This document shows, piece after piece, positions 1 to 57,151 of a stretch of 64,000 nt of DNA (position 1 is its first letter; every line of letters begins with the position of its first letter). The DNA comes from a virus (Duplodnaviria > Caudoviricetes), in IMG/VR virus record IMGVR_UViG_3300014208_000023, positions 64,001 through 128,000 of that record; one strand, given 5' to 3'. A program made the position numbers and the translations under genes. A model generated the notes under the pieces. It was not told the origin of the DNA. It saw only the letters and a list, made by a program, of their open reading frames with translations, and did no database searches.

Positions 1-89
1 TTGGAACAATCAGGGATTCGGTTATTGTGGAGAACCGATCGAGCCATTGCGGCGATCAGTAGGTCTCCAATCGTGGACGAGCACATCAT
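1..89 (-). CDS. hypothetical protein, runs off left edge
   Basis: ATG 89-87 overlaps the TGA of 86..283 (ATGA coupling); frame open to window edge (MMCSSTIGDLLIAAM...). Confidence 0.4.
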   Translation of the reverse strand, partial: MMCSSTIGDLLIAAMARSVLHNNRIPDCS

Positions 90-283
90 GCTAGCATCCA
101 CGATAGCAGTTTGTCAACCAAGAAGTCACTCTTGGACCTACAGCGCGGATCGTACTGAGGCTTGTAAACCACAACCAATCCGCACGGGTCTTCCAAGCAA
201 CCCTCGGGAATCCACGCCCACGACCAGCAGCGGCGAATGTCAGGTGTGGTTGAACATTCGCCGGCTTCGACTAGGGAAGCCAA
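86..283 (-). CDS. small hypothetical protein
   Basis: TTG start after GAGGA; overlaps neighbours at both ends like an operon. Confidence 0.4.
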   Translation of the reverse strand: MASLVEAGECSTTPDIRRCWSWAWIPEGCLEDPCGLVVVYKPQYDPRCRSKSDFLVDKLLSWMLA

Positions 284-456
284 TTCGTCCTCGGAAGGAA
301 GACGACGTTGGGGGAATGGGGGAAACCCATACCCTCACGCTGGAAGGGGTCGGCGGCAACAAGAGCCGCTTTCAGATCCTTGACCTTGACCATACCAAGC
401 TCTGCCTTGTGCTGAGCGTGGAACGGGCAAGTGTGCTGTCTGCAATCGTGATCCAT
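271..456 (-). CDS. small hypothetical protein
   Basis: GGAGGAGG SD upstream of ATG. Confidence 0.6.
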   Translation of the reverse strand: MDHDCRQHTCPFHAQHKAELGMVKVKDLKAALVAADPFQREGMGFPHSPNVVFLPRTNWLP

Positions 457-470
457 ATGTGTGGATCCTC

Positions 471-584
471 CTCCGTCTCAACTAGATACGACCGGGAGCC
501 TTTCTAGAATGCTCCTAATACTGGGGGAAAGTCTGGCAGTTGGGTTAGTGTCCAGTAAGTCCCCTGTATGTAGTTGAGACGGAG
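471..584. repeat. perfect 14-bp inverted repeat CTCCGTCTCAACTA / TAGTTGAGACGGAG
   Basis: Arms at 471-484 and 571-584; 12-bp core recurs at 2724-2735. Confidence 0.85.
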
Positions 585-620
585 AGGGATGAGGGATTGG
601 TTAGATCCCTCCTCACCTAC

Positions 621-800
621 TCACGGCTTCGGAATCTCCAATGACTTGATCCTCTCACCAGAGGTAGTCATGGAATGAGAAGTGTCAACCTTGCCGTTCT
701 CGATTACCCTAGACACCCAAAGATCCGCATCCGGGTAATAAGGACAGTGAGAAACAACGACGTAGACCGTGGAGTGTTCCCGAAAGAACTTCCCGATCAT
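621..800 (-). CDS. 59-aa hypothetical protein (not in ORF track)
   Basis: MIGKFFREHSTVYVVVSHCPYY...EIPKP; ATG overlaps stop of 797..994. Confidence 0.55.
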   Translation of the reverse strand: MIGKFFREHSTVYVVVSHCPYYPDADLWVSRVIENGKVDTSHSMTTSGERIKSLEIPKP

Positions 801-994
801 TCGACGTGCGCGATCTGAAAGACCTCTTCGGTCTCTCCGTCAACAAGCAACTCCTTCACCTTGTACGTGTGAAAGAGATGCTCACACTGAATAGCCGGGA
901 GAAAGTCTCTCTCGACTTCAGCAAGATCCTTGGCCCGTACGATCCTGACTTCCAGGGCGCACGGACCTTTGGCAGTGAGAACGAACAACGCCAT
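797..994 (-). CDS. small hypothetical protein
   Basis: GAGGAGG SD upstream of ATG. Confidence 0.65.
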   Translation of the reverse strand: MALFVLTAKGPCALEVRIVRAKDLAEVERDFLPAIQCEHLFHTYKVKELLVDGETEEVFQIAHVE

Positions 995-1005
995 GATGTT
1001 ACCTC

Positions 1006-1095
1006 CTCGCTATTACCTCTATCCGCAAGGGGTATTAGCTACCCCATCACCGCCCAGCTTTCTAGGACATAGTGGCATCTAGAAGTAATAGCGAG
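1006..1095 (-). promoter_or_regulatory. long leader stem-loop overlapping the SD of 797..994
   Basis: CTCGCTATTAC (1006-1016) pairs perfectly with GTAATAGCGAG (1085-1095); 5 further bp with a U-G wobble on minus; inner GGGGTA/TACCCC hairpin. Confidence 0.6.
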
Positions 1096-1184
1096 AAGGT
1101 AGAAAGGCTATGGCCCTTCCACCTATCTCCGAATGAGAGTAGGGCCGCGTTGGTTAGCGGGCGGTCTCATTCCCTGGTAGTGAG

Positions 1185-1212
1185 AGTGTAGGGAGCGGCG
1201 GCCCCCTACACT
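1185..1212. terminator. GC-rich hairpin downstream of 1228..1797
   Basis: AGTGTAGGG/CCCTACACT stem; no clear U-tract on minus, so role uncertain. Confidence 0.35.
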
Positions 1213-1227
1213 TTAGGCTGCGATGAT

Positions 1228-1797
1228 TCACGCCGACTTCCTCTTCTGAGAATTGCTCTCAGTGAGCCAAGCCGGACGGGGCTTCGACTTGTAGGCTTCC
1301 AACCTCGCAAGTCTGGCTTTGCGGGTCTCCTCGCTTTCCATCTTGGCGAAAGCTTCCGCTTCCAAGGTCGGAGAGACCGGGGGCGGGGTCATGGGCTTGT
1401 CGAGAGCAGGCGGCGGAATGAACCGCGCTTGCTCCCGAACAACCGGAACGAACGTGTGAGGAGCGCGAACAACCTCGCGCTCCTTCTTCGCGAGCTTGGT
1501 AGCCTCGCGCTTCGCCGTGGCCGATGCTTTCTTGGCATCGACCTTGGAACGCTCCTCCGGCGAGAGAGCGTTGTAAGCGGCGACCTTGGCTCGCTTCCGA
1601 GTCTTGATCGCTCGCTTCTCGGCGTACTCGGCCGCCAGCGCCTTCCGCTCCTCGTGAGAGAGGCGGATCTGCTGGCCGGTTGCGAAGTCCCGTCGGTAGT
1701 ACGGGATTCCCATCGGCAACTTCGGCTCGCTCGGTCCCTCGGGCACGACTGCAACCGCGAACGGTAGCTGAAACCTCGGATGCGTTCCGATATTCAC
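1228..1797 (-). CDS. basic Lys/Arg/Ala-rich protein with Pro-rich linker, possible nucleic-acid binder
   Basis: AGGAGG SD before GTG; 189 aa; no recognised family. Confidence 0.75.
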   Translation of the reverse strand: MNIGTHPRFQLPFAVAVVPEGPSEPKLPMGIPYYRRDFATGQQIRLSHEERKALAAEYAEKRAIKTRKRAKVAAYNALSPEERSKVDAKKASATAKREATKLAKKEREVVRAPHTFVPVVREQARFIPPPALDKPMTPPPVSPTLEAEAFAKMESEETRKARLARLEAYKSKPRPAWLTESNSQKRKSA

Positions 1798-1827
1798 TTG
1801 AGCCTCCTAGCAATTAGGTTTGACCAC

Positions 1828-1905
1828 CTATCTCTACCGGTAATAGAGGAGAATTGACTTATTGCCGCTACAAGAGACGGCATCCTTTATTACCAGTAGA
1901 GATAG
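1828..1905 (-). promoter_or_regulatory. long leader stem-loop upstream of 1228..1797
   Basis: CTATCTCTAC/GTAGAGATAG, CGGTAATA/TATTACCA, GAGGA/TCCTT and TGCCG/CGGCA stacked stems. Confidence 0.6.
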
Positions 1906-1909
1906 AAGG

Positions 1910-2729
1910 GAGAGTCACACTGCCAATGTGACCCTCACCTCCTACCCTTCGGGACCACTTATCTACGACGCCTTACGTCTCTCGCACCTCAGTCTCACCG
2001 AACCTAACGACTAGCCTGTAAAGCCAATCTGTCAGCTATCGCCTCACGTCTTCCCGGTACTAGATTAGCCATCCCAAGGGCGGCCCACCATTCCCAGGCA
2101 TGTAGACATTACTACGATTGCCTTTCTTAGATTCAGGAAACCTTGGATAGAAAGCACGTTGCCTCCGTCCTTAGCATCCCAGCGTAATCCGGCTCCAATC
2201 CTCCTATTGAAGCCTACGTATGGCGGTTTCTTAGACCTAGACCATCCCACTAGCTTGCTACTCATCCCTTGATTGTCCTATCGGATTGACTATTCAGCGC
2301 GGTACCTCTAAGGCCAGCGAGCTTGTCAGGCTCACACTCCAAAGACGCACGTTGCTTAGGCGATCCACCTTTCGGTGGCTGTCGAAAGTCTCCTCAGTCT
2401 AGCTACTCCTCTAGTCGCGCCGGCCGTTCCCTTGGAAACGGTTAGCACCTATTGGAGCCTTTGAAAGATTCAACTTTCCTGGCCTTAGTTCGCGATAGGA
2501 TCGAAAGGACCCCTTGCTTACTAGCGTTCGGTGCCGGGAACGGTTCCGGCGCAGTTTCATTGCTTGCTAGTAGGAAGCCCCTACTAGTCCGAGCGATATA
2601 TCCTCCGCTACCCGACTTTACGGGTAGTTACGGATTATGGCTGTATCGGGATAAACCCCACTACCCGTTAGGGTAGCCGCCACCGCTAGCAATGCTTTTC
2701 ACGGGAGTTTCGGCCCCGTGTTCCCGTCT
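1910..2729 (-). ncRNA. putative large structured ncRNA (GOLLD-like candidate); ends approximate
   Basis: No credible ORF; hairpins at 2700-2720, 2661-2676 (UAAC loop on minus), 2608-2627, 2567-2587, 2533-2550, 2365-2378 (GAAA loop on minus), 1914-1932; starts just below a sigma70 promoter. Confidence 0.6.
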
Positions 2730-2734
2730 CAACT

Positions 2735-2763
2735 AACCTAGCACCTACGCGCTAGGCTGTCAA
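2735..2763 (-). promoter_or_regulatory. sigma70-type promoter TTGACA-N17-TAGGTT with extended TG
   Basis: -35 at 2763-2758, -10 at 2740-2735, read directly. Confidence 0.75.
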
Positions 2764-2798
2764 GGTATGTTTAGACGTTTGAAAGTGTCGCCTTACGC

Positions 2799-2961
2799 GC
2801 TTTCCCTTTCTTCCGTCTCGCCGTTCACTCTAGCAGTGTTTGCTTTAGTGTCCAGCGGGTTTCGGAAGATTGTTTCGGCGCTACCTGCTTTCCTTTCTTC
2901 CGTCTCGCCGTTCACTCTAGCAGTGTTTGCTTTAGCGTCCAGCGGTTTCGGAAGATTGTTT
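2799..2961 (-). repeat. tandem duplication of a ~76-nt unit, likely a structured RNA module
   Basis: Copies 2799-2875 and 2887-2961 differ by one substitution and two 1-nt indels; each closed by TCTTCCG/CGGAAGA. Confidence 0.85.
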
Positions 2962-3217
2962 AGCAGGTTTCGGCTTTGGTTCCTTTCTGGTAGCGACTCG
3001 ATAGCAGGTAATGCACGACCCTTGCCAACCTTGACCGGCCCTATCAATCTGCTAACTATGCGACATTGCTAGGCTATTCGGTTTCCGCTGCTACTGGAAT
3101 TGGGGTGGTGGGGATTACTGCCACGGAAGTTTTTTTTATTATCTGTAACCTATTAGAATCATTACGGAAAAGTATCTTGTGTCAGAATTGTATCATTGGG
3201 ATCAATTGCTACAGTCG

Positions 3218-3249
3218 ATTACAGTGCCAGCGGATAATTACAGTGCCAA
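3218..3249. repeat. 12-bp direct repeat ATTACAGTGCCA x2
   Basis: 3218-3229 and 3238-3249, next to an AT-rich poly-T stretch. Confidence 0.7.
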
Positions 3250-3327
3250 CGGAATTCGCCGTTCCCGTAGGGTGTGAGGGCTGCCGCCCCCAGGCGGCCT
3301 CCCCTACTCACAGAAACGAACAAGAAT

Positions 3328-3374
3328 GATACGGTTAGGATACGGTTAGGATACGGTTGGACGGTTGGATGGTT
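3328..3374. repeat. decaying tandem repeat of GATACGGTTAG
   Basis: Two perfect 11-mers then three shortened copies, at the GC/AT transition. Confidence 0.85.
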
Positions 3375-3393
3375 CGTATGCGGCTGGGATAGA

Positions 3394-3672
3394 CTATCTC
3401 AACCTATAAGACCCAAACTGCTTAATCGTCTTTCTTCTATGACAATTAGCACATCTCATCTGACATTGAGCTATTTCTGCCACTAACCTATCTAACGAAC
3501 AGTTATTGGTTATAAGCCTATTGATACCATAGGACTTCCTGCCTACGTGGTCAAACTCTAATACTACCGGATCATTCTCTCCGCAATCTACACATGGATT
3601 ACTTAATAGATATCGATATACGTATTCTCTTTTTATATCAGTTCTTCTTTTATCACCAATCTTGTCAGCCAT
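3394..3672 (-). CDS. HNH endonuclease
   Basis: CVDCG...LEFDHV...RCANCHRRKT. Confidence 0.8.
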   Translation of the reverse strand: MADKIGDKRRTDIKREYVYRYLLSNPCVDCGENDPVVLEFDHVGRKSYGINRLITNNCSLDRLVAEIAQCQMRCANCHRRKTIKQFGSYRLR

Positions 3673-3693
3673 ACGTTAGATATATCCTATCCT

Positions 3694-4323
3694 ATGCAAC
3701 ACCAACTACTAGACATATTCCAGTTCGATAATGTAGATCCAGGACTGACTCCAAAGTATTACTCCGCCGATAATAAGAAACACGACATTCTAGTTATGAA
3801 CGGAGATGGTTCATTTCAAAAAGGAAAGCTTGGAGTAACACCTGACACTGGTATTCAGATTCCTCTCTTTCCTATGAGCGAACCCTGGAAACTATCTCAC
3901 AAGACTCCTCAGGGAATGCAATCACTACTTGAAACCTTCATTAGTTCTTTTCTTGGTCAGATAGAGCCTATAATGATAGACTCAATATTAGAGATTAAGA
4001 GCTACATTAACAATAACGGCCATATAGTAGCTGGAACTGCCATTAGGAATGCTGAGGGTATGGAACAGATATGTCGTGGCTACACCAATATCTATGAGCT
4101 CGTTAATAAGGCAGAGGCTAGCAATACCATTAATGACAGAAGATGTGTCTTTCTTAAGTCTATGGACCCCTATACAATAATGATTTGCCCGGAACCAGAA
4201 GAAACCGGGATATTCAGCTATATGGGCCATGTTCAACCAGGAACCAATAATGTTACTAATAGAGAAATTGGCTTCTTTTTATTACCGAAAGATATTAAAG
4301 TATTTAAACTCCAGGTAGCGTGA
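3694..4323 (+). CDS. hypothetical protein, possible miniature major-capsid paralog
   Basis: Shares P-x-Y, GxG, IPLF and ICPEP..G blocks with 7389..7991. Confidence 0.6.
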   Translation: MQHQLLDIFQFDNVDPGLTPKYYSADNKKHDILVMNGDGSFQKGKLGVTPDTGIQIPLFPMSEPWKLSHKTPQGMQSLLETFISSFLGQIEPIMIDSILEIKSYINNNGHIVAGTAIRNAEGMEQICRGYTNIYELVNKAEASNTINDRRCVFLKSMDPYTIMICPEPEETGIFSYMGHVQPGTNNVTNREIGFFLLPKDIKVFKLQVA

Positions 4324-50626: not shown

Positions 50627-51274
50627 TCACACTTCAATTTTGCTACGAAGAATATCAAGAGCCCCATTAAGAGTCTTGATGCAATTCGCGCGACTAATCT
50701 TTTTCTTTTCACACACTTTGGTAATAGATAGCGGCTTGTCACCATCGAACCCATATACTAAATTAACTAACTCTCTCTGATCATTAGAGAGAGTACCCAA
50801 TGCCTCTTGCACTGCAATATTTAATTCAGACTGTTCACAGGCTTTTTCAGGCGAATGTTTTGAATCCAAAAGAACCGGGAATACGCTTTCTTTGTGCGGC
50901 TTTGTTTTCTTCGCTATGTGCATAGGGTAGCGAATAACGGTATGATTGTTTGCGCTACGAACAAGTCTTGTATTTACGAATAGTCCGGCCCAAAAGAAAA
51001 AGCTTCCTTTGTTATTCTTGAATGTTTTCATTGCCTTAAGAAGAGCTTCAAGGCCCTCCTGATTAAGGTCTTCATAATTGGCAAATTTTCTATATTTGCC
51101 AGTCTTCATCTGAACGAAATACTTGAGCGTATCTAGGCACTCGGATTCGTATTGATGGTATGCTATTTTGTCACTTTCGGATTTCGATTTAGCGTAAGCC
51201 TTACGTAGCTCCGATAGCTGTTTCATCATCTTTCTGGCGGTCTCTTCCGTAATCATTGTTTTCCTAAAATTCAT
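50627..51274 (-). CDS. sigma-70 family RNA polymerase sigma factor
   Basis: EDLNQEGLEALLKA..F....GSF..WA region 2; C-terminal region-4 HTH. Confidence 0.8.
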   Translation of the reverse strand: MNFRKTMITEETARKMMKQLSELRKAYAKSKSESDKIAYHQYESECLDTLKYFVQMKTGKYRKFANYEDLNQEGLEALLKAMKTFKNNKGSFFFWAGLFVNTRLVRSANNHTVIRYPMHIAKKTKPHKESVFPVLLDSKHSPEKACEQSELNIAVQEALGTLSNDQRELVNLVYGFDGDKPLSITKVCEKKKISRANCIKTLNGALDILRSKIEV

Positions 51275-55688: not shown

Positions 55689-56228
55689 TTATAAATTGAT
55701 GTTAATGTATGCCACTGGATAAGCCACATTTATGGTGGTGGTGGTGGTTGCCGTTGAAGTTGTGTATCCTGCAATCGCTCCAGCATAACCAACGGTAGCG
55801 GTAGAAAATGTGTCGTAATAATTATTAGAAACTGGAGATATTGCGATTGGCGTAATTATCTTGTCCATAATTTTCTTATATTTTTCATAAAATTGAGTGG
55901 CTCTTACTACGCTATTTGGATAGATAAATCCATAGCTATCATATAGCTGTTCGATATTTCTAAATGGGCATTCTGAAGTAAAACGATATGTATCATATAT
56001 GAATTTCAATACGCCATTCATTATAATGACACGCTGTTCCTCGTTAATAGAGGATGAGGGCGCTACAATCTCAAATTTTCTAAAAAAATTCCTATCCCAT
56101 AATTTATATTTGAAAGTAAAAAAATCGGCGCCTACTAGAGTAGTTATATATTCAATATTTAATAACATTTTTTTACTTTCATTACCATCTAAATGATGGT
56201 TTATGTCTTGGCTTCTCAATAACGCCAT
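55689..56228 (-). CDS. hypothetical protein with Thr-rich tail
   Basis: Operon context. Confidence 0.55.
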   Translation of the reverse strand: MALLRSQDINHHLDGNESKKMLLNIEYITTLVGADFFTFKYKLWDRNFFRKFEIVAPSSSINEEQRVIIMNGVLKFIYDTYRFTSECPFRNIEQLYDSYGFIYPNSVVRATQFYEKYKKIMDKIITPIAISPVSNNYYDTFSTATVGYAGAIAGYTTSTATTTTTINVAYPVAYININL

Positions 56229-56538
56229 CTATTAATTGCCTATGCTCCTTGTAGAATGGCGTAGTTCTAATTTGTGCTATTGATGACGAGAACGTTTTAC
56301 TCATTACTAGCTTAAAGTTTTTACACAATGATTGGTTTGAAAATTTATAAGCATAATATATGCTGTATAGCAATTCATTTATATGATCTTCATTATTAAG
56401 ATCGCCACTTTCTTTTCTCTTATACCTTGCGGCAAAATCGTGTTTAAATGCAGTGTCATTTAATCTATAATACTGTATTACGTCTTTAGGATTTTCCCGG
56501 TCAAACGTAGTAAATTTTGTAGCCAATCCTACATACAT
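56182..56538 (-). CDS. hypothetical protein
   Basis: GGAG SD. Confidence 0.55.
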   Translation of the reverse strand: MYVGLATKFTTFDRENPKDVIQYYRLNDTAFKHDFAARYKRKESGDLNNEDHINELLYSIYYAYKFSNQSLCKNFKLVMSKTFSSSIAQIRTTPFYKEHRQLIDGVIEKPRHKPSFRW

Positions 56539-56551
56539 AATGTTCTCCGAA

Positions 56552-57151
56552 TCATTTTACCTTTTCTAGCATTGAAAGATCAAATCCTGACTGTTGTATC
56601 CAAATCAGTAAGGTCTTATCATTATTATCGGCAGATCCAGTATCCACCATTCTTTTGATGAATGCTAGATCTCCATACGTTTTACAATCAACCTTAAGTC
56701 TTAAGGCCATGTCTAGGAAGTTTGCTGGCAATTCCGTCGTGCGATCAACATTTTGTGTCTTATCCATAGCTAGCTTCTTAAACTTATATTCATTAGTAAT
56801 ATTCAAATCAGTAACGAAAGCTAGACTAGTAATTCTCTTCTTCTTTAGAATTATTTTGTGCTCAAAAAACCAATCAATATAGTCTTTTAATATTTCTGGG
56901 TCCGAACTAATCATCTGCCCAAGTTTTCTTATTTGAAAGACTTCATATGATTTAGATGGACTGTTTGCATTAAATCTAAAAGAGAATTTAGTTCCGTAGT
57001 GATCCAGATATCGTTTTGAAAAATACGATAATAGATGAACAACTTGCCAATCTTTAATTGGCAATGCTTCGATCTCTGAAAATCTTTTGAAGAACTTTTC
57101 CCAGTATATAGAGGGATATTCTTCTATCCTTAGATTATTGCTTGGAGTCAT
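56552..57151 (-). CDS. hypothetical protein in replication cluster
   Basis: 199-aa intact ORF. Confidence 0.65.
   Translation of the reverse strand: MTPSNNLRIEEYPSIYWEKFFKRFSEIEALPIKDWQVVHLLSYFSKRYLDHYGTKFSFRFNANSPSKSYEVFQIRKLGQMISSDPEILKDYIDWFFEHKIILKKKRITSLAFVTDLNITNEYKFKKLAMDKTQNVDRTTELPANFLDMALRLKVDCKTYGDLAFIKRMVDTGSADNNDKTLLIWIQQSGFDLSMLEKVK

Follow-up and report, generated by a model that had tools for sequence, protein, structure and literature searches.

What occupies a stretch of about 1.6 kb, without a credible gene, at the head of the early operon of a jumbo phage? The question is raised by the opening of a 64,000-nucleotide (nt) piece of virus DNA (to be referred to as the window), which corresponds to bases 64,001-128,000 of a 428,320-bp IMG/VR virus record with terminal repeats. 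The original prediction, made from the letters of this DNA, placed an ornate, GOLLD-like non-coding RNA (ncRNA) of about 800 nt at positions 1910-2763 of the window, under a near-consensus promoter. Comparison with related phages indicates that the minus strand of this region very probably carries a conserved, structured non-coding RNA element. With about even confidence, we interpret it as a gene whose product is a large ncRNA of a new family; this RNA would form a discrete first 'cistron' of the early transcript and act in trans. In this phage its predicted size is about 0.8-1.0 kb, and in the relatives the RNA would reach up to about 1.2 kb.

To our knowledge, only a handful of bacterial and phage RNAs longer than 500 nt with elaborate conserved folds have been described, and none of them has an established function. 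The element described here would add a new large RNA family whose genomic role is clear: it opens an early operon and stands behind promoter-like modules. This position gives a time and a place to seek the function, which GOLLD and ROOL lack.

Conservation of the gene-free gap

The gap spans positions 1798-3393 of the window. It contains only short, unconserved open reading frames (ORFs) of at most 101 residues, and the absence of a credible ORF over about 1.6 kb, on which the original prediction was built, is therefore confirmed.

Homologs of the gap were reached only through homologs of the proteins encoded around it, and then through the contigs that encode these proteins. A search with blastn, using positions 1-3500 of the window against 50,697 phage records, finds no match, and tblastn with the 189-residue protein encoded next to the gap finds none either. 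Locus searches in IMG/VR with this protein, and with a 240-residue protein from the other side of the gap, give no relatives. The same search with an AAA ATPase encoded in the neighboring region gives only distant phages (41-47% identity), which are without a homolog of the RNA. For a conserved 23-mer, CAATCCGATRGKACAATCAAGGG, there are 0 matches in IMG/VR and JGI metagenome contigs. An invariant 18-mer has matches in metagenomes (120), IMG/VR (2) and GTDB (98), and these were rejected, as none is a relative by nhmmer; they represent chance matches, a conserved Ruminococcus gene, and a Cytophagales repeat.

The 189-residue protein has seven homologs, with 53-99% identity, and the ATPase belongs to a tight clade at 61-91% identity. 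Contigs from NCBI (430,963 bp), JGI, ENA, and Logan provide eight lineages with the full upstream DNA. All eight have a gap of 1.3-2.2 kb without called genes upstream of the first early gene, and these gaps are homologous to that in the window, with nhmmer E-values between 1e-11 and 1e-119 and with two alignments (A1 and A2). The length differences between the lineages correspond to whole inserted hairpins, a feature shared with other large RNAs. So far, the predicted RNA is known only from this one clade of ~430-kb uncultured phages.

No long ORF is found at a consistent position in any of the eight lineages, either with the standard code or with read-through of TGA, TAG, or TAA. Antisense stop-to-stop frames of about 100-130 codons are present in several lineages, at positions that differ from one lineage to another. 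Mismatches are spread evenly over the three phases, without 3-base periodicity, and only 10-22% of the insertions and deletions are multiples of three (78-90% are not). With no conserved ORF and no codon-like substitutions, the element is non-coding.

The sequence of the gap is nonetheless constrained. Over ~800 nt, the RNA core shows 62-68% identity to the equivalent regions of two relatives (L009 and L019). The four-fold synonymous sites of the ATPase gene, compared between the window and relatives, are 32-46% identical. Judged by this comparison, the core is under selection, being more alike than nearby synonymous sites.

Predicted structure of the RNA core

The structured core, defined by nhmmer, alignment A2, and folding in the eight lineages, is located at 1947-2728 on the minus strand if the nearest of the promoter-like modules (copy 3, see below) fires. 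At least 12 helices are predicted in it. The minus strand of region 2740-1800 has a minimum free energy (MFE) of -375.5 kcal/mol, well below that of dinucleotide-shuffled controls (z of -5.5), and the plus strand has an MFE of -312.7 kcal/mol (z of -6.6). For the 866-nt core between 2761 and 1896, the z score of the minus strand is -7.0. The cores of the eight lineages (817-1153 nt) all fold better than shuffled sequences, with z scores between -3.2 and -10.5. Moreover, the sense strand is more stable than the antisense strand by 34-127 kcal/mol in every one of the lineages, as it should be if G-U pairs are important. The sense strand is also G-rich, with G/C ratios of 1.26-1.41 in all lineages.

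The stems of the RNA vary in sequence between the lineages, and many of the apical loops are fixed. Hairpins with GAAA and UAAC tetraloops, which had been noted on the minus strand, are visible both in the sequence and in the fold (CCACC-GAAA-GGUGG at 2367-2380 and CUACCC-UAAC-GGGUAG at 2661-2676). Near the 5′ end of the core, hairpin Hb (2700-2720, minus strand) has a 6-bp stem that covaries in all lineages and a loop with the consensus C(C)UAACU. It is helix 4 of the model-fitted alignment A9, where 5 of its 6 pairs have compensatory changes and 100% are paired. A near-invariant hairpin, GCGCCGG-AACCGUUC-CCGGCAC, is located at 2531-2552 on the same strand.

The clearest example of a fixed loop on a variable stem is hairpin HP2 (2424-2441, minus strand). 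Its 8-nt loop, UCCAAGGG (2436-2429), is invariant, and its stem of 5-8 bp has a different sequence in every lineage (CCGUU/AACGG, GUGAUAU/GUAUCAU, CUGUAU/AUACAG, and GCUAU/AUAGC among the examples). In a plain MAFFT alignment, 89% of the cells in this stem are paired as compared to 52% after shuffling, and 0 of 500 shuffles reach the observed value; such shuffle counts are not probabilities. Compensatory changes, on both sides of the pair, are found for 6 of the 7 pairs, with slid controls giving 25-50%.

Three other hairpins on the minus strand contribute to the 3′ half of the core. HP3 (2220-2245) consists of the loop CUAAGAA, an inner GGU/ACC stem, and a covarying outer stem. HP4 (2191-2214) has a 9-bp stem, with 3 compensatory pairs in four lineages, and a Shine-Dalgarno-like AGGAGG loop that is restricted to the subclade of the window, L009, L013, and L019. 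A long-range helix (CAAUCC/GGAUUG) was considered and rejected, as the changes in L013 compensate in the local HP4 stem instead. HP8 (2053-2098) is a long covarying stem with CCCUUGGG (2080-2073) at its apex.

These assignments were also assessed with a loop-anchored test, in which the flanks of a fixed loop are folded and compared with shuffled flanks in the eight lineages. The Stouffer Z values are -10.3 for HP2, -7.8 for HP8, and -3.8 for HP3. Plain MAFFT misregisters hairpins that differ in loop or bulge sizes, and as a result RNAalifold detects nothing on HP8 and undercounts HP3.

In a covariance-model alignment of the 5′ domain, 93% of the positions are paired as compared to 32-53% in slid controls, and 12 pairs have changed on both sides as compared to 4.9 expected; this alignment of five lineages was fitted to the model and leans to structure, because four of its five rows were seeds. 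The model itself (R1) finds five of the eight lineages. It misses L017 as well as the window and L013, the latter two in part because they are without the first hairpin. Overall, several helices have compensatory changes among the eight lineages, with one of the alignments being model-fitted. The predicted ornate ncRNA of about 800 nt is therefore borne out in part: the element is conserved, non-coding, and heavily structured on the minus strand, it is close to the proposed size and location, its homologs show covariation, and its folding energy is well below that of the shuffled controls.

A candidate kissing contact

Two invariant apical loops of the RNA, UCCAAGGG and CCCUUGGGA, are perfectly complementary to each other. 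The sequence CCCUUGGG is found at the apex of HP8 in all eight lineages, and when extended by the A that follows, it complements the HP2 loop exactly. The duplex between the two would contain 8 bp, with a calculated energy of -12.7 kcal/mol. The sole change across the eight lineages is a C to U substitution in L019, which keeps a G-U pair. As the motifs sit in two apical loops, a kissing contact is the simplest reading, and the loops may pair either to compact one molecule or to join molecules. The complementarity predicts, in a simple and testable way, a kissing contact or multimerization. If the loops kiss, changing UCCAAGGG to UCCUUGGG should break the contact, and the matching change in the partner should restore it.

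Promoter-like modules and the predicted ends of the RNA

The TTGACA-N17-TAGGTT sequence that had suggested a near-consensus promoter is present at 2735-2763 on the minus strand. It is, however, the third copy of a tandem module of ~87 nt, it forms a hairpin, and it is absent or degenerate in L009 and L013. Copy 2 (2827-2854, minus strand) is TGGACA-N16-TAGAGT, with a TG before the -10-like hexamer, and copy 1 (2914-2941, minus strand) is TGGACG-N16-TAGAGT. Thirteen modules from seven lineages share a TTGACA-like hexamer, a spacer of 16-17 nt, and a TAnnnT hexamer. The -10-like hexamers are TAGATT, TAGAGT, TAGGGT, TACAGT, and TACAAT, and the best module, in L017, is TTGACA-17-TACAAT. Judged from these sequences, the pattern of conservation resembles that of sigma-70 promoters.

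The modules are themselves structured. The spacer and the -10-like hexamer of copy 3 form a 9-bp hairpin, and the stem-loop of every module copy includes the -10-like hexamer. The mean MFE of the spacer hairpins is -7.65 as compared to -2.16 for shuffled sequences (z of -11, for the 13 modules). In our own reading of the folds, the change in the -10-like hexamer of the window is apparently matched in the opposing arm. The module region as a whole has z scores between -2.1 and -7.9 in all eight lineages. In comparison, the conserved DNA upstream of the modules folds little better, or no better, than shuffled sequence in most lineages (z of about -3 to +2).

The start of transcription is probably at the modules or slightly ahead of them, which would place the 5′ end of the RNA at about 2907 or about 2728. 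The position between these two is uncertain, because every copy of the module also forms a stem-loop with its -10-like hexamer.

On the 3′ side, the RNA is bounded by a hairpin, GGUAGGAGGUGAGGGUCACA...UGUGACUCUCCCUUCUAUC (1901-1946, minus strand), which is conserved in all lineages and is terminator-like by scan. This hairpin is the first half of a separator that also lies between early genes, where it is seen at 470-600 and 1000-1110. The separator continues with a second long stem (1825-1910, minus strand), followed by AGGAGG (1809-1804) and the GTG start codon of the 189-residue gene at 1797.

Three lineages contain an extra conserved non-coding module of ~300 nt between the separator and the first gene (L016:8470-8800, L017:6750-7049, and L011:215-540), with the pattern GGUAGUUCUUACAUAUAGUAAGAGCG...GGGGAAGUAAU.AGUACCC...GAUGGUUGGCAAGUAGGCUC. 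This module has no match in Rfam and no copy in the 428-kb genome of the window, and it may represent an optional cistron for a second structured RNA. The separator bounds the RNA in the same way as it bounds cistrons, and further non-coding modules can be inserted after the RNA; both suggest an independent unit.

A possible course of events can be proposed for this region. The host RNA polymerase would start at one of the two or three tandem TTGACA-N16/17-TAnnnT modules, and the minus strand would be read as the first unit of the early operon. The RNA would fold into its at least 12 helices, with fixed loops on variable stems, and the UCCAAGGG and CCCUUGGGA loops would pair within one molecule or between molecules. 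The RNA would then be released, or partly terminated, at the hairpin separator. The location in the operon points to a role very early in infection, within the first minutes, and our guess is that the RNA would act in host take-over, in protection against defense, or in a ribosome-related role. It is a more speculative and rather unlikely idea that the first product after infection is an ornate RNA of ~1 kb that self-associates through its two complementary loops into a particle, serving as a decoy, a shield, or a scaffold in the take-over. If the early regions of other jumbo phages start with similar, unrelated RNAs, large early RNAs may be common in host take-over.

Probable signals in the upstream DNA

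The conserved non-coding block extends upstream of the modules. Its upstream edge is marked by an invariant 19-mer, ATTCTTGTTCGTTTCTGTG (3309-3327, minus strand), which is preceded by a decaying tandem repeat (at about 3330-3372) and followed by a GC hairpin. The 19-mer is identical in all eight lineages except for one G/A position, and the flanking DNA is diverged, to about 50%. The 19-mer probably acts at the level of DNA, and could be a genome-end, packaging, or regulatory signal. The GTTACAGATAATAAAA motif (3134-3149, minus strand) is exact in five lineages and has a single copy in the 428-kb genome. This sequence, GTTACAGATAATAAAA(AAAA), is AT-rich, with a small covarying hairpin next to it, and could represent a promoter that is unique in the genome, or a different single-copy signal ahead of the modules. 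In most lineages, excess folding is confined to the module region and the core, and DNA-level signals probably exist in addition to the RNA, upstream of it, at 3327-2950.

The 18-19-mer is also the core of a palindromic repeat (GAACATTCTTGTTCG TTTCTGTGG CGAACAAGAATGTTC) in more than 30 contigs of one Cytophagales metagenome-assembled genome (L146-L241, JAAFHK010000xxx). This match is probably a coincidence rather than a clue to the host, because the phage is without the second arm of the palindrome and the promoter-like boxes are not of the Bacteroidota type.

Comparison with known RNAs and early regions

A search with the models of Rfam 15, at gathering score, finds no family in the 64-kb window or in the eight homologous loci. 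With a threshold of E ≤ 10, positions 1-4000 of the window give only a 14.8-bit chance match to the model of a 46-nt small RNA. The divergent homologs L016 and L021, at E ≤ 5, give only microRNA and long non-coding RNA noise. GOLLD (RF01998) and ROOL (RF03087) match neither at the gathering level nor in these relaxed scans, and there is no covariance-model match for OLE, HEARO, raiA, group I/II introns, RNase P, 6S, or transfer-messenger RNA (tmRNA) in the window and the homologous loci. The likeness to GOLLD in the original prediction is thus not supported, and the motifs likened there to the GOLLD 3′ half (2244-2268 and 2123-2135) fall within or close to conserved portions of the hairpins of this RNA itself. 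With no model matched, the RNA becomes a candidate new class, the other outcome that had been foreseen.

GOLLD is often located in or beside the tRNA islands of phages and prophages. ARAGORN finds no tRNA or tmRNA in the 64-kb window, in agreement with the lack of an adjacent tRNA noted before, and the location typical of GOLLD is therefore not observed here. The nearest tRNAs of the genome are at 28 kb and 370 kb. The expression of GOLLD rises at lysis, and the assemblies of GOLLD, ROOL, and OLE are held together by kissing loops (PMC12286853). The RNA described here is similar to GOLLD and ROOL in being phage-borne and non-coding, with a size of 0.6-0.9 kb or more and many helices with conserved loops. 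As in those RNAs, the peripheral helices vary by lineage, and the complementary loops found here could form kissing contacts. On the other hand, it matches neither model, has no adjoining tRNAs, and opens an early operon, preceded by promoter-like modules.

The arrangement at the head of the operon can be compared with two well-known systems. The early region of T7 has tandem promoters for the host polymerase (A1, A2, and A3), followed by the RNase III site R0.3. The phage analyzed here likewise has two or three tandem sigma-70-type promoter-like modules before a long one-directional operon, whose cistrons are separated by conserved hairpins. In T7, however, only about 150 nt separate A3 from the first gene, with no large folded RNA, whereas about 800 nt of conserved structure are interposed here and the promoter-like modules form hairpins. 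The put RNAs of HK022 are ~70 nt, with two stem-loops, and the nut site of lambda consists of boxA and one hairpin; both function in cis in antitermination. They also represent folded RNAs encoded close behind early promoters and ahead of a long operon, as the RNA here is with respect to its promoter-like sites, but the element described here is ten times larger, and this comparison is by description only.

Discrete RNA, leader, or DNA element

The explanation closest to a discrete RNA is that of a cis-acting 5′ leader, which would stay on the early polycistronic message and act on the transcript or its polymerase. Possible roles would be processive antitermination through the GC hairpins of the operon (as for HK022 put), protection against Rho or 5′ decay, or translation control of the first gene. 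The first early ORF follows the RNA directly on the same strand, without a strong intrinsic terminator in between. The RNA is also G-rich, C-poor, and tightly folded, as expected of an untranslated stretch that escapes Rho. However, known antitermination or stabilizer elements are far smaller and less elaborate than this RNA, which measures 0.8-1.2 kb and has a dozen helices and numerous invariant loops. Moreover, the RNA is bounded by a cistron separator, after which extra non-coding modules can be inserted. A cis leader is a possible explanation, ranked second to the discrete trans-acting RNA. The discrete RNA is favored because of the size, the many invariant loops, the modularity bounded by the separator, and the lineage-specific peripheral helices.

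The remaining explanations carry much less weight. The whole stretch could be a DNA-level control region (the first-injected end, a packaging site, a replication origin, or a promoter array), with the hairpins being inverted repeats that bind proteins. Such a region would account for the decaying tandem repeats, the invariant 19-mer, the GC hairpin, the genome-unique AT-rich motif, and the promoter-like modules, as well as for the location exactly at the switch in base composition and gene orientation and for the inverted CCWWGG repeat formed by the loops. This is improbable, as the stems covary while the loops are fixed, and many of the G-U pairs would be A-C mismatches on the other strand. 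The higher stability of the sense strand in all eight lineages, and the confinement, in most lineages, of the excess folding to the modules and the core, argue in the same direction. Even less credence is given to a very divergent GOLLD, ROOL, OLE, HEARO, or group I/II intron beyond the reach of the Rfam models. The size, the phage origin, and the ornate multi-hairpin look are those of such families, and the original prediction pointed to GOLLD-like motifs, but the window and the eight loci have no match at the gathering level, the relaxed scans give nothing relevant, and the RNA is at the head of an early operon with no adjacent tRNA rather than in a tRNA island. This reading is largely refuted. 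A decayed or unusually coded protein gene would be suggested by the antisense frames of about 100-130 codons. We consider it the most improbable of all, since the positions of these frames vary with the lineage, a long frame common to the lineages does not appear when TGA, TAG, or TAA is recoded, and neither the substitutions, without 3-base periodicity, nor the insertions and deletions, mostly not multiples of three, are those of a coding region.

Several observations weigh against the interpretation as a discrete RNA transcribed from the modules. The expression and the ends of the RNA are predictions from the DNA sequence. A free RNA is distinguished from a leader joined to the early mRNA only by evidence based on the terminator. 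The modules may be parts of the RNA rather than promoters, because they are themselves structured. A scan of positions 1600-3500 with the sigma-70 consensus gives 2 matches, which is not above chance (1.1 ± 1.1 expected), and 2763-2735 is not among them because TAGGTT fits only three of the six positions of TATAAT. The covariation counts are not formal statistics, as there are only eight lineages, and the support for the 5′ domain comes from the model-fitted alignment with four seeds among its five rows. For the kissing contact, no covariation proves the pairing because both loops are invariant, and as DNA the complementary loops are an inverted CCWWGG repeat.

Genomic setting and neighboring genes

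The first 3400 positions of the window form the right-hand end of an island of 22 kb that is rich in GC (genome positions 45,000-67,400, 50-58% GC). The opening ~3.4 kb of the window have a GC content of 50-63%, as compared to ~40% for the remaining genome. Nearly all of the ORFs in the island are on the minus strand, and long hairpins are abundant between its genes. The RNA stretch is placed between the first minus-strand ORF of the island, which encodes the 189-residue protein, and the AT-rich remaining genome. Base composition and gene orientation both change exactly at this stretch. The junction between the island and the AT-rich phage DNA is the same in the independent assemblies of relatives, and the island is therefore not an assembly chimera. 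The gap had been described as standing in an otherwise gap-free genome. It is real, but the genome is not uniform: the gap is at the edge of the island, which contains at least one other structured ORF-free stretch.

The gene for the 189-residue protein is located at 1228-1797 on the minus strand, and the ORF on the other side of the gap is at 3394-3672, also on the minus strand. The 189-residue protein is rich in Lys, Arg, Glu, and Ala, with Pro-rich stretches, and these features are seen together with the 53-99% identity to its seven homologs. It has no match in Pfam or PHROG, and could be a candidate nucleic-acid-binding partner of the RNA.

The second structured ORF-free stretch of the island has 635 nt (L002:12094-12728, genome positions 56,094-56,728, minus strand) and is 7.3-7.9 kb before the start of the window. 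It has an MFE of -253 kcal/mol (z of -6.5) and contains TTGACA-N16-TACAAT. No match in Rfam is found for it.

A 225-residue frame on the minus strand matches sigma-70 region 2 weakly, with a score of 22.2 bits that is below the cut-off, at 50987-51091 of the window (genome positions 114,987-115,091). The phage may redirect the host polymerase through its own sigma-like factor. A phage RNA polymerase gives no Pfam match, but the control PF00940 matched nowhere, and this result is uninformative.

The AAA+ ATPase of the island belongs to phrog_8638 (E-value of 2e-142), and its closest cultured relatives are mycobacteriophage ATPases, with 37% identity. One close homolog of this ATPase, P0021 (67% identity), comes from a collection of eukaryote transcriptomes (EukProt, with the sample label Spiro4). 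A protist culture therefore contained RNA of a related phage, and this sample is a possible lead to a host and to expression data.

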